Positions 19,233 to 64,000 of a DNA stretch of 64,000 nucleotides are shown here, piece after piece. The position numbers were made by a program, and so were the translations under genes. A model generated the notes under the pieces. The model was not told where the DNA came from. It saw only the letters and a list, made by a program, of their open reading frames with translations, and made no database searches. Source of the DNA: Octopus vulgaris (taxonomy: Eukaryota); NCBI GenBank assembly GCA_951406725.2, contig OX597842.1, positions 11,594,001-11,658,000 on the forward strand. The letters run 5' to 3'. Position 1 is the first letter of the stretch. Every line of letters starts with the position of its first letter.

Positions 19233-19643
19233 CTTTAGACTTATTTATAGACTGCCATATTAGTAAGGCGATAACTATTAATACCCAGTAACGCTGCTGT
19301 AATCTCCTTTAGAGAGACTTAGTAATTTTAATATTTCTATTATTGAAAACAAGTGGATGTATTCCACTGTAACTAGGTAAATAAAATCTTCGAATAGACG
19401 GTCAGTAGCGACACCTGCTGGTTCTGGCTACGCTGCATTGATAAAGGGCAACAACCCTGAAACATGTCTGCAGATGTCTGACTAGCAAGGTGAAGCGGCT
19501 GACCGCCCCTGTTCGAAGGTTGTAATGGACGCAGGTTCGTGTGTCAAATAGCTAGCTAGAGGCGGTGGCCTCTTGGAGCTAATCAGCGACAGCTTTAGTC
19601 TTATTTATAGACTGTCATATTAATATGGCGATAACTATTAATA
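19233..19643 (+). mobile_element. 360 bp unit with ~50 bp terminal direct repeats carrying a hammerhead (Penelope-like pLTR or retrozyme)
   Basis: 19233-19283 repeated at 19593-19643; ends in (TA)n; the same family recurs at 61671-61845. Confidence 0.7.
19433..19473 (+). ncRNA. Type I hammerhead ribozyme, U3-A8 variant
   Basis: ctgca TTGATAA aggg caacaa ccct GAA acatgt C tgcag: stem I 5 bp, stem II 4 bp, palindromic stem III, GUC triplet. Confidence 0.8.
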
Positions 19644-19659
19644 TATATATATATATATA

Positions 19660-19825
19660 GGCGCAGGAGTGGCTGTGTCGTAAGAAGCTTGCTTCCAGCC
19701 ACATGGTTCCAGGTTCAGTCCCACTGCAGAGCACCTTGGGCCAGTGTCTCCTACTATAGCCTCGAGCCAACCAAAGCCCTGTGAGTGGATTCGGTGGACG
19801 GAAACTGAAAGAAACCCATCGTATT
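19660..19825 (+). mobile_element. SINE family A short form (5' module only)
   Basis: Head directly after (TA)n; ends in a CA/TA repeat. Confidence 0.85.
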
Positions 19826-20250
19826 CACACACACACACACACACACACACACACACATACATATATATATATATATATATATATATATATATATATATAT
19901 ATGCATATATATACATACATAAATGTGTGTGTATGTGTGTGTGTATATGTGTGTATATATGTGTGTGTATGTGTGTGTATATGTGTGTGTGAAGGCCAGC
20001 AATTTCAGAGTGGAGTAAGTCGATTACATTCATCCCAGTGTTCAACTGGTACTACTTTTATCGGCCACAAATGCATGGAAGGCAACATCAACTTCGGGAC
20101 GTAAAATAGAGACGAAATGCCGCTAAGCATTTTACCCGTCGTTCTAACGGTTCTGGCAATGGTTGAGTGGAACGGAAACGTTTAGAAATGGTATCATTTA
20201 TGGAAGCAAAGATTAACATATATATATATATATTAATAGTAAGTCATTTA

Positions 20251-21973
20251 GGATCTTTTCGGTTTGAACGGCAGTTTATTCTAGCGGTGTCATATGAAAT
20301 TGTCACCCATAATTATGACCCTAGTATCGATCTATTGCATTTCAATCTGTTTTAGGGTTAGGGGTGGGGGAAGGGTATTTTTTCTTTCTTCAGAAATGTA
20401 AATAAACCCAATCTGTTTCTTAAACGAGGGTCATATTCATACGGCACAGAATGTTTTTTACCTCAATGGACGTCATTGATTGGTTGAAATTGCCGAAATG
20501 CAAGAAATTTAGCAAGAAATAGCTTACAAACAACAGAATATGGATCTTTTTGGTTTGAATGGTAGTTTTTTCTAGCGGTGTCATATGAAATTGTCACCCA
20601 TAATTATGACCCTAGTATCGATCTATTGTATTTCAATCTGTTTTAGGATTAGGGGTGGGGGAAGGGTATCTTTTCTTTCTTCAGAAATGTAAATAAACCC
20701 AATCTGTTTCTTAAACGAGAGACATATTCATACTGCACAGAATGTTTTTACCTCAATAGACGTCAGTGATTGGTTGAACATGCAGAAATTGAAGGAAAAA
20801 AACAACAAATGGATCTTTTCGGTTTGAACGGCAGTTTTTCCTAGTGGCGTCATATGAAATTGTCACCCATAATTATGATCTATTCCATTTCAATCTGTTT
20901 TAGGGTTAAGGTTAGGGATGGGGGAAGGGTATCTTTTTTTCTTCACAAATGTAAATAAATCCAATCTGTTTCTTAAACGAGGAACATATTCATACGGCAC
21001 AGAATGTTTTTTACCTCAATGGACGTCATTGATTGGTTGAAATTGCCGAAATGCAAGAAATTTAACAAGAAATAGCTTACAGACTACAGAATATGGATCT
21101 TTTCGGTTTGAATGGCAGTTTTTTCTAGCGGTGTCATATGAAACTGTCACCCATGATTATGACCCTAGTATCGATCTATTGCATTTCAATCTGTTTTAGA
21201 GTTAGGGTTAGGGGTGGGAGGAAGGGTATCGTTTTTTTCTTCACAAATGTAAATAAACCCAATCTGTTTCTTAAACGATGGACATATTCATACGGCACAT
21301 AATGTTTTTACCTCAATAGACGTCATTGATTGGTTGAACATGCAGAAATTGAAGGAAAAAACAACAAATGGATCTTTTCGGTTTGAACGGCAGTTTTTCC
21401 TAGTGGGGTCATATGAAATTGTCACCCATAATTATGATCTATTGCATTTCAATCTGTTTTAGGGTTAAGGTTAGGGGTGAGGGAAGGATATCTTTTTTTC
21501 TACACAAATGTAAATATACCCAATCTGTTTCTTAAACGAGGGACAAATTCAGAATGTTTTTACCTCAATAGACGTCAGTGATTGGTGAAATTGCAGAAAC
21601 TGAAGAAAAAACAACAAATATCTTACAAACTATAGAATTTTCTCAATAAAGCCAAGAGAAAAACATGTTTTATTTTGACACATTCTACCAGTATACGAAG
21701 TTTAAAAGTGTTTAGTTACCTCGAAATTATGTTTAAAAAACTGCCGTTCAAACCGAAAAGATCCATTTATTTTTATCTTTAGATTCTCCTACTTTATTGA
21801 TGGTTCGCTGTCGACATTGGGGTGTGTGGTTGTTGAGTAATAATAGCTCAGGTTGTGTTTATGCGGAACCGACAAAATGTTTTATTTTGACACATTCTAC
21901 CAGTATACGAAGTTTAAAAGTGTTTAGTTACCTAGAAATTGTGTTAAAACTGCCGTTCAAACCGAAAAGATCC
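20251..21973. mobile_element. Compound non-autonomous DNA transposon with ~27 bp TIRs and an 8 bp TSD
   Basis: TIR GGATCTTTTCGGTTTGAACGGCAGTTT at 20251; inverted copies end at 21764 and 21973; GTCATTTA at 20243-20250 and 21974-21981. Confidence 0.88.
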
Positions 21974-22525
21974 GTCATTTAGAATGTCGAACAGTTTTTC
22001 TATGACTGAAGCATAAAATGATTACCTCCCTTGTTAAAACTGCGACCGCTAGGGAAACGACGTGCGACTGAAGAACTTCGACTGTGATTTCACGCAAGTC
22101 TATTTTGAATTGTTGTCGATGGTCAAAATGTGTGTGTTTATGAACAAAGCGTCTGTTCTGTTACTCATGTTGCCAGACTCTTACTAAGAAATGACAGAGA
22201 GACAAATGTCGATACCTCAAAGGATATATATCGGAATATGAACGAGATTGTTTCAGTTCGTTATAGTGTTTGAGTTTTATTTATTCTGACACTCGGGTGT
22301 ATAAACAGACGTCCGTTGCTCTACATAATGAAGGGTTGTTATTAAGATGTAACAGCTTCAAAATGAATGCCAACACCTCAAAGACAAGAACGGAAAACGC
22401 TTTGTAATGTTGTATGAAGCGAAAACCAAAATTATTAGTTAATATCAGACATTGTCGAAGGGTAGAAATCTCTCGAAACGATGATTATTCTGTGTGTATA
22501 CAATAAGAATTTTCTCTTTTTTCTC

Positions 22526-22914
22526 TCTTTTACTTGTTTCAGTCATTTGACTGCGGCCATGCTGGAGCACCGCTTTTAGTCGAGGAGATCGACCCCGGGA
22601 CTTATTCTTTTGTAAGCCCAGTACTTATTCTATCGGTTTCTTATGCCGAACCGCTATGTGACGGGGACGTAAACACACCAGCATCGGTTGTCAAGCAACG
22701 CTAGGGGGACAAACACACACACACAAACACATACACACATACATATATATACATATATATGATGGGCTTCTTTCAGTTTCCGTCTACCAAATCCACTCAC
22801 AAGGCATTGGTCGGCCCGGGGCTATAGCAGAAGACACTTGCCCAAGATGCCACACAGTGGGACTGAACCCGGAACCATGTGGTTGGTTAGCAAGCTACTT
22901 ACCACACTGCGCCT
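22526..22914 (-). mobile_element. SINE family A with a long flanking duplication
   Basis: Full reverse copy; 22491-22525 repeated at 22919-22953. Confidence 0.9.
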
Positions 22915-62544: not shown

Positions 62545-62587
62545 CAGTCGGATGATGGCTTAGCTGAGCGAAACTTCAAAGTCGCTG
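62545..62587 (+). ncRNA. Decayed hammerhead within an old inverted repeat (62490-62602)
   Basis: cagt CGGATGA tg gctt agct gagc GAA acttcaaagt C gctg; core mutated. Confidence 0.4.
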
Positions 62588-63676
62588 TCAGTATTATTCT
62601 TGGTACAGAAAAATAGATCTATACTCTACCAAGTGTATTGAGTGCGCCTTCGGTCTAATGTAAATTTGTTTTTACTATGACATTAAAACAAACATTAATA
62701 TACGTACGTATGTATGCACCAATGAGGGTATATATATATATATATATATATATATATATATATATATACAAATATATACACATATATGTATATATATGTA
62801 TGTATGTATATGTATATGTTTGTATGTATGTATATACATATGCATATGCTTGTATGTATGTATATATATATACATATATATACATGTATATATATGTTTG
62901 AATGTATATATATATATATATATATACATACATATGTTTGTATGTATATACATATATATATATATTATATGTGTGTGTTTATATGTATGTATATATACAT
63001 ATATATATACATATATATATATATATATATATATATATATATATATATATATTTATATATATATATATATACCTGTATATGTATAAGACGGGCTGCTTTA
63101 ATTTTCCCTCTACCAAGCCCACATGCATTGGTCGGCCCGTGGCTATAACATTAGACACCTTCTCGCGGCTTCACACAACAGGATTGAATCCACAACCAAG
63201 TTACGCTGCGTCAGAAAGGGTGTGGTGTGTTTGTTTTTTTGTGTTTTTTGGGGGGGGGGGCTTTTTAGTATAGCTTCGGGTCGACTTTATCGCTGTGAGC
63301 GAGATCGATGAGGTCGAAGCTGTTTGGGAACTCGAAGGATAGTGTTCTACGCGTTATTGTTCACACCCTCCACACACGCCTTGAAATAAGAACTTGCAAA
63401 AAACAAAAACACAGGAGCTGAGGCTAACGAAAAGAAAGGGCAGCAGCCGCCCGGTCCCCTTCTCTGTTCTTGACTAATGATTGATGAGACTAATGATGCA
63501 AAGAGGTTCTATTTTTGACTGGGTAAATAATGTCGCTTGTTATAACCATTTTCAGAAAGTTTTCGTCTTCCTCGAGACGTTGTGTAACTGATACCCAATC
63601 TCCATTGACCAGTATATATATATATATATATATATATATATATATATATATATATATATATATATATTATAGAAGG

Positions 63677-63727
63677 AGCTTCTACAGGACTAGAACTGTT
63701 TCATTCAAAAGAAATCATCAGGAAGCT
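63677..63727 (-). ncRNA. Type I hammerhead (left arm)
   Basis: Reverse complement of 63907-63957. Confidence 0.73.
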
Positions 63728-63906
63728 AGGTGACAAGAATAGTTTTGGCATTTATACATTTAGGCAGATTTAAAGTGGTGGTGGGGGGGGCTTTTTGGGG
63801 TAGGCATGGCGCAAACTGTCTTTCTTAGGGGACCCCAAAAAGTCCCCCACCACCACCACTTTAAATCTGCCTAAATGTATAAATGCCAAAACTATTCTTG
63901 TCACCT

Positions 63907-63957
63907 AGCTTCCTGATGATTTCTTTTGAATGAAACAGTTCTAGTCCTGTAGAAGCT
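63907..63957 (+). ncRNA. Type I hammerhead (right arm)
   Basis: agcttc CTGATGA t ttc tttt gaa t GAA acag ttctagtc ctgt A gaagct; 6 bp stem I, 4 bp stem III, GUA triplet. Confidence 0.75.
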
Positions 63958-64000
63958 CCTTCTATAAAATAAATTAATTTACTCTGCTATGTATTGAGTA

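Follow-up and report, generated by a model that had tools for sequence, protein, structure and literature searches.

Hammerhead islands beside TA repeats in Octopus vulgaris: probable 3' ends of truncated Penelope-like elements and a tandem retrozyme-like repeat

The stretch analysed here, called the window below, comprises 64,000 nucleotides (nt) of Octopus vulgaris DNA (GenBank assembly GCA_951406725.2, contig OX597842.1, positions 11,594,001 to 11,658,000, forward strand), in which microsatellites and short interspersed element (SINE)-like repeats are abundant. An earlier note, made from the sequence alone, had described about ten hammerhead ribozyme folds in it, most of them in islands of 170-400 bp touching (TA)n. 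The adjacency to TA is borne out. However, most of the islands are not stand-alone units: they correspond to the 5'-truncated 3' ends of Penelope-like elements (PLEs) of 3-5 kb, and in five of seven families (B, C, D, F and G) copies elsewhere in the genome (2.8 Gb, 227 contigs) continue into PLE open reading frames (ORFs).

Hammerhead folds in the window

The window was searched with a strict type I descriptor consisting of the core CUGANGA/GAAA/UH, a C3-G8 or U3-A8 pair and stems I, II and III. Seven matches were obtained, at 19438 (+), 32586 (-), 39323 (-), 40716 (-), 40831 (+), 63721 (-) and 63913 (+), compared to a mean of 0.03 and a maximum of 1 in 30 dinucleotide shuffles. When one core mismatch is tolerated, the window still gives seven and the shuffles reach a mean of 1.6 and a maximum of 7, so that only the strict result is significant. 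Since the sites 40674/40818 are the two arms of one inverted insertion, as are 63677/63907, the seven matches represent five insertions, a mild excess over the roughly 1.5 expected (p about 0.02). Of the ten sites originally proposed, all of them with a GUH triplet, three fail the strict descriptor: 30427 (core CUGUCGA, with U at position 6), 30967 (stems I and II decayed) and 62545 (core CGGAUGA, stem II broken). Site 39240 passes with its core at 39323 and a stem II domain of 54 nt.

The sites fall into seven families, where at least six had been counted, 30427 being separate from 30967/32556. The features are as follows.

19233 to 19642, plus strand: family A, a tandem retrozyme-like repeat with a unit of 358 bp, present here in 1.15 units and with a short 3' end on (TA)n
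19433 to 19473, plus strand: family A hammerhead, U3-A8 core, ACAUGU palindrome, predicted cleavage after 19468
30388 to 30562, plus strand: family G, truncated Neptune-type PLE 3' end, hammerhead-like fold at 30427-30464 with U6, TA on both sides
30902 to 31092, plus strand: family B, decayed copy, hammerhead at 30967
32454 to 32670, minus strand: family B, truncated 3' end flanked by TA on either side; minimal hammerhead with its core at 32586 and cleavage predicted after 32560
39202 to 39448, both strands: family C inverted pair; minus arm 39202-39339 with the short end and a long-stem-II hammerhead, core 39323, predicted cleavage after 39252
39362 to 39448, plus strand: family C plus arm, tail only, long end
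40650 to 40965, both strands: family D inverted pair; minus arm 40650-40781 with the short end, plus arm 40781-40965 with the long end; cores 40716 (minus) and 40831 (plus)
40902 to 40923, plus strand: bulged hairpin of the D tail, directly downstream of the short end, the same motif occurring in E and F
61669 to 61836, no strand assigned: inverted pair of family A that lacks the hammerhead and consists of just the 3' end and the tail, inside (ATT)n; absent from the earlier list
62475 to 62699, both strands: family E, old decayed inverted pair with Hydra-type hammerhead and hairpin; minus arm 62475-62543, plus arm 62546-62699
63668 to 64000, both strands: family F inverted pair; minus arm 63668-63832 with the short end, plus arm from 63831, its long end about 40 nt past the window and followed by (TA)n; cores 63721 (minus) and 63913 (plus)

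The consensus of the 30 top copies forms a full hammerhead in each of families A to F, a 3-bp stem I being accepted, and this includes the families of the failing sites 62545 and 30967. Individually, 28 (A), 22 (B), 24 (C), 30 (D), 1 (E) and 29 (F) of these 30 copies pass the descriptor. For G, none of 20 copies passes and the consensus does not restore a canonical core. Stem covariation, a check suggested earlier, was seen for C, in eight variants less than 90% alike picked from 62 matches, a set that covers C-like sequences only. These variants keep stems I-III, the 11-bp stem II and the distal hairpin, with 92% of cells paired and 12 two-sided changes; none of 500 shuffles is as high, slid controls are 36-48% paired, and three of five measures lie above all shuffles.

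Parent elements and copies across the genome

For family D, the parent is intact. In locus L040, an ORF of 711 aa (ATG at 1292, stop at 3425) has a hammerhead on either side, within pseudo-LTRs: one lies 205 nt upstream, the other about 1,020 nt downstream. Nearly all copies of D are 100% identical, and two chromosomes compared differ by 2 mismatches in 2,130 nt. The protein contains the motifs RWK, DKT, YRDD, CxCx5C, CxxC and CxH; its Hydra-clade motifs, at positions 36, 112, 561, 666 and 694, are kept in 89-117 of 117 aligned sequences, and every such motif named in section 11 of Craig et al. 2021 (PMC8557442; published sources are cited here for the parts of them available to us) is present. 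The structure model has a predicted local distance difference test score (pLDDT) of 93, with telomerase TERT as best PDB match (E 4e-10); the model from the single sequence reaches 33. The C-terminal nuclease is a putative GIY-YIG domain, assigned from VY..Y.G, E and N motifs and from look-alike clusters bearing GIY-YIG. Judged by these motifs and by eye against reference PLE proteins, D represents the 3' end of a Hydra-clade element that is young and intact and has a reverse transcriptase (RT) and predicted GIY-YIG nuclease. Its two 3' ends are mapped exactly, its target is simple and it has a candidate RNA signal, so that it offers a ready substrate for in vitro assays of a clade for which the available papers report none. 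Contigs from runs labelled organisms B, C and D also match the D end (40660-40781), at low depth and with 1-2 differences over 110-120 nt.

Remnants of a second and a third ORF matching the Hydra-type profile are linked to C and F, respectively. The ORF ends about 475 nt upstream of C in three loci (L204, L205 and L208; profile E 2e-116) and 2.6 kb upstream of F in L217, which is colinear with L201 over 3 kb (profile E 8e-21). Family E is likely Hydra-type as well, as its hammerhead type and hairpin agree with those of D and F, and at least 700 nt of upstream sequence are common to its copies. Several other candidate parents were rejected: the CCHH-type ORF considered for F in L198 belongs to a Neptune-type insertion of its own, nested within TA, and the pieces of Hydra ORFs next to A (L211, L230) and to E (L210) are likewise separate insertions. 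The long-stem-II hammerhead was considered as an overlooked Naiad feature and rejected, C joining a Hydra ORF and the Naiad_Ovul end being unlike C by eye.

Upstream of B, RT and Zn-finger/GIY-YIG sequences are found in a broken ORF 1-1.6 kb away (L335/L332, L319 and L337). The parents of B and G have a Cx2-5CxxC linker and a CCHH-type GIY-YIG, with a DKG RT in B, and are placed in the Neptune clade by motif only, without a tree against reference sequences. Copies of G are 94-97% alike, and position 6 of the core is U in every one of the 28 pattern matches, the ORF-linked copy included; G is hammerhead-like, not canonical type I. Lunse et al. (2017) reportedly treat PLE hammerhead variants, and may already cover the U6 or long-stem forms. 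A change of the same residue to C brings the observed cleavage rate (kobs) under 0.1 per min (PMC3088659), and no A6U variant was found in one literature search; by analogy, cleavage of G would be weak or nil. As G multiplied with this altered core, self-cutting may be unnecessary for spread. A further, young Neptune-type PLE, present at many loci of the genome, has an intact 781-aa ORF (L365:3440-5782, minus strand), with many full frames among 150 scored, a U3-A8 hammerhead and two 3' ends.

Family A, with its 358-bp period, has the properties of a non-LTR retrozyme (LTR, long terminal repeat), namely a tandem non-coding unit of 150-450 bp with a type I hammerhead. A similar family of 359 bp, in locus L235, shows two inverted and five direct units that end at 179 and 223. 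These tandem repeats bear the insertion signature of PLEs (an inverted arm, ends of both lengths and flanking TA), and A likely borrows a Penelope protein. The 781-aa ORF was tried as its partner and rejected, the U3-A8 core type being shared and the hairpin not. Within the window, tblastn detects no PLE ORF, in agreement with the earlier note.

Genome DNA searches, which give first-look candidates (40 scored per family) rather than copy numbers, returned 2,533 for A, 2,020 for B, 2,055 for C, 878 for D, 570 for E, 1,262 for F and 782 for G. In a sample of 400 kb (forty 10-kb stretches at round coordinates), 20 strict matches occur in 10 of the 40 stretches, compared to 0-3 in ten shuffles; two, in L264, are chance-like. 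The resulting density of about 45-50 per Mb extrapolates, very roughly, to 1.3-1.4 x 10^5 hammerheads genome-wide. In the fetched loci, 171 distinct matches form 35 clusters, some of them by chance. The large and diverse Penelope-related, TA-preferring population envisaged by the earlier note is therefore supported, its self-cleavage being a prediction; the ends of copies do not lie at the cleavage site. Further hammerhead families with stem II inserts of 30-75 nt were noticed in L236, L238, L253, L271, L097, L004, L079, L108, L122, L230 and L232.

3' ends, TA repeats and insertion

End classes were defined by how far (TA)4 lies from the predicted cleavage site. Copies end 37 or 108 nt past this site in D, about 22 or 92 in F, 49-65 or about 200-213 in C (a count that mixes two subfamilies), about 173 or 232 in A, and at 102 only in B. 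Overall, copies end 16-232 nt past the predicted cleavage site and no class falls on it. In D, the extra tail is the beginning of the next unit's 5' untranslated region (UTR), and long copies (L034, L040 and L042) run through the upstream hammerhead. Since copies read through the hammerhead and end beyond its cleavage site, the template RNA was uncut there. Among 43 inverted pairs, 40 combine a short with a long end, one is short/short, none is long/long and two are unclassified (p 2e-11). The bulged hairpin directly follows the short end in D, E and F, and C is without it; by eye, it is also found, with changed pairs, in Hydra-2_Amil, Hydra-1_Ajap and Hydra-2_Ajap (PMC8557442 supplement). It is a candidate RT binding or start signal. 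In A, and in about three further repeat families, the short end is preceded by a hairpin of another kind.

In the 400-kb sample, (TA)5 lies within 230 nt of the 3' side for 10 of 13 terminal matches, against a background of 0.18; this tally was made by hand with a cut-off chosen post hoc, five internal tandem units and two stretch-edge matches being dropped and pair arms not being independent. TA follows the 3' end in 44/47 copies of D, 46/46 of F and 32/34 of B. As a control, 5/30 SINE heads have (TA)4 within 12 nt upstream. At the 5' junctions of non-inverted copies, TA is found in 20 of 81 (D 3/8, A 4/20, B 11/30, F 2/17, C 0/6) against 2.3% in the background, with 12 copies that run off their locus dropped and F junctions hard to place. 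TA targeting is supported, and the PLE protein is a better candidate than the ribozyme for the source of the preference; the supplement of PMC8557442 gives a (TA)n insertion preference for 26 of 27 Hydra families, whose hammerheads are built alike. PLE ends also accumulate in shared TA runs: just past the window, a C-related subfamily (L045:160-480) lies within the TA run adjoining F, and L082, L097 and L198 are similar. Dinucleotide runs make up 73% of the F UTR and 71% of the B UTR, while the D UTR has 36% and random DNA 32%, so that some of the microsatellite beside the islands is element-borne.

Taken together, the islands are very probably the 3' ends of 5'-truncated PLEs (Hydra-type C, D and F, Neptune-type B and G, likely Hydra-type E) plus the tandem family A, copied into TA-rich repeats through a proposed two-start insertion. 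The element's RT and GIY-YIG protein would bind its own RNA near the hairpin downstream of the hammerhead and, by analogy with the biochemistry of PAc (the Poseidon element of Anolis; Frangieh et al. 2024, PMC11167929), cut both strands in (TA)n. The two DNA ends would then prime cDNA at two internal RNA starts, one at the short end and the other 55-160 nt further, with one start site per cut strand. If both cDNAs survive, they would join as inverted arms, one having the short and the other the long end; if one survives, a single truncated copy would result. With cDNA mostly stopping early, the hammerhead-bearing 3' end would be the commonest remnant. The ribozyme, probably dispensable for spread, likely acts at another step, such as trimming read-through RNA or making retrozyme circles.

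Several results weigh against parts of this account. Rfam hammerhead models give no match in the window at gathering score, and no hammerhead appears among the 150 of 190 matches listed in an e-value scan, which are microRNA models on microsatellites. Pfam has no family for the D protein, a PDB sequence search with the D alignment returned nothing, and no GIY-YIG is among the fold-search matches listed; standard Rfam and Pfam scans thus miss the RNA of the islands as well as the D protein. No empty site was seen, the DNA contigs over 40220-41400 being dominated by neighbouring repeats and uninformative for an empty D allele. Parent ORFs were found neither for A nor, in ten extended loci, for E, and that of G is present in a single locus (L383) with the RT N-part not in view. 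Two of the five covariation measures for C do not exceed the shuffles (53/500 for pairs with a two-sided change, 309/500 for additional pair types), and sequences that are related may exceed shuffles even where there is no structure. None of 30 B copies is inverted, B has its single end class, and 24 of 30 young copies (L047-L076) begin no more than 10 nt from a common point lying 82 nt upstream of the core, a pattern for which two-start insertion does not account. Finally, 61 of the 81 5' junctions are without TA, leaving insertion inside an intact, pre-existing (TA)n unsupported for most copies.

This last point is what one would expect if the (TA)n were mostly made or lengthened by the element, through a telomerase-like RT that adds TA, or slips on it, while priming. 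The TERT-like fold of the RT, the microsatellite-like UTRs of F and B, and TA following nearly every 3' end agree with such a process, whereas 5' TA ten-fold over background, the A pair that follows the local (ATT)n and the insertion preference listed for published Hydra families speak for a pre-existing target. We regard element-made TA as rather unlikely to be the main source, and as compatible with two-start insertion as an add-on. That the islands are independent short non-autonomous retrozymes, which self-cleave, circularise and spread as fixed units, is improbable as a general explanation. Tandem A without ORF and L235 fit it, circles have been shown in coral, mussel and axolotl (PMC7229834), and the preferred B start, which falls directly after a GUC in longer copies, yields a 215-bp unit; however, hand inspection revealed no hammerhead fold around that start. 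The extension of five families into PLE ORFs with variable truncation refutes independence for C, D and F and confines it to A and perhaps a subfamily of B, whose shared start possibly marks re-mobilised short copies. Chance folds, or fold-back artefacts of a microsatellite-rich assembly, would suit the silence of Rfam, the shuffle with seven relaxed matches and the inverted repeats that assembly can generate; we count this explanation as refuted by the strict excess, by multi-copy families with perfect consensus folds, and by pair arms ending at different fixed points, which fold-back does not give.

Beyond the truncated-PLE reading, a wider synthesis seems plausible, though short of probable. 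One insertion may use both RNA starts, one per cut strand, guided by the conserved bulged hairpin; retrozymes with the same signature and their own hairpin may be integrated by a Penelope protein and not amplified in place. The spread of G despite its likely crippled A6U core would make the ribozyme a passenger for insertion, kilobases of microsatellite-like UTR would seed part of the simple-repeat load, and hammerhead copies would number about 100,000.

If transcribed, the inverted pairs at 40650-40900 and 63668-63966 might, speculatively, form 130 nt of perfect double-stranded RNA masking both hammerheads, a possible substrate for RNA editing or small-RNA processing. Elsewhere in the window lies a 216-bp tandem repeat (4114-9962, 27 copies, 97% alike) with no hammerhead match. 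Fragments at 11239-11829, 17134-17580 and 55595-56077, adjoining (ATT)n runs, resemble ORFs presumably of non-LTR retrotransposons.

Comparison with known systems

D resembles the Hydra-clade PLEs of Craig et al. 2021 (PMC8557442) in its single ORF with RT and then C-terminal GIY-YIG, its RWK, DKT, CxCx5C, CxxC and CxH motifs, a canonical hammerhead near the 3' end with a 4-bp stem III, (TA)n insertion, inverted 5'-truncated copies and a tail often at one end only. Stems I and III match those of Hydra-2_Amil by eye. Hydra-1_Obim of Octopus bimaculoides is a different family, its hammerhead and N-terminus differing by eye. The D unit of about 3.4 kb and the F UTR of 2.6 kb alone compare with sizes "generally <3 kb", the tails of 55-160 nt with 30-40 nt, and C has its 54-nt stem II. 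The D protein has at least 1,938 full-length relatives (E<=1e-20, the best 43-58% identical), mostly on 2.3-3 kb contigs, against 27 families listed in that paper, and the Hydra-type clade thus appears far larger than published.

With Neptune PLEs (PMC8557442, after Arkhipova 2006), B and G share the linker before GIY-YIG, two cysteines inside that domain, DKG (B), a minimal hammerhead, the ACGU palindrome and TA flanks; B differs in its 1-1.6 kb (CA)-like UTR and G in U6. PAc (PMC11167929) also has two internal RT starts that define the tail, AT-rich targets and cleavage of both strands. Its template is likewise uncleaved RNA, and its hammerhead mutants insert normally in vitro. Its start sites lie in the ORF, those of D in the 5' UTR, and the available text of that study reports no one-short/one-long rule across genomic inverted pairs.

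A and the L235 family are comparable to the 358-359 bp tandem non-coding units with type I hammerheads known as non-LTR retrozymes (PMC7229834; Li et al. 2026, bioRxiv 10.64898/2026.07.22.740005), from which they differ by the PLE insertion signature and by the hairpin before the short end in about four families. Mobilisation of retrozymes by PLEs was argued in those papers from co-occurrence and sequence kinship, to which the copies described here add structural support. As in the minimal PLE hammerheads of Cervera and de la Pena 2014 (PMC4209133), we find type I folds, palindromic stem III, the U3-A8 variant (S. mansoni), many families per genome and thousands of mostly solitary truncated copies. 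Long stem II variants are common here, and the rough density exceeds the 2,000-9,000 per genome of that study, coming near the 120,000 of axolotl (PMC7229834). Penelope-like families listed as recently active number 31 in an octopus repeat annotation of 2026 (PMC13282606), whose main text is silent on ribozymes, hammerheads and Hydra.

Overall, the islands represent known biology, namely ends of Hydra and Neptune PLEs together with retrozymes, lying in (TA)n; the TA preference, hammerheads, inverted copies and tails have been published for these clades, one octopus family included (PMC8557442). The same source calls open both the role of hammerheads in PLEs and the origin of tandem and inverted insertions. 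In the available PLE and retrozyme literature we did not find the short/long pairing in 40 of 43 pairs, the same signature in tandem retrozymes, the recurring bulged hairpin, U6 in 28 of 28 matches of G, or 3' UTRs that are 70% microsatellite-like. The near-strict pairing of ends, the hairpins, family G and, as an assay substrate, the intact young Hydra element are in our view the points worth pursuing.

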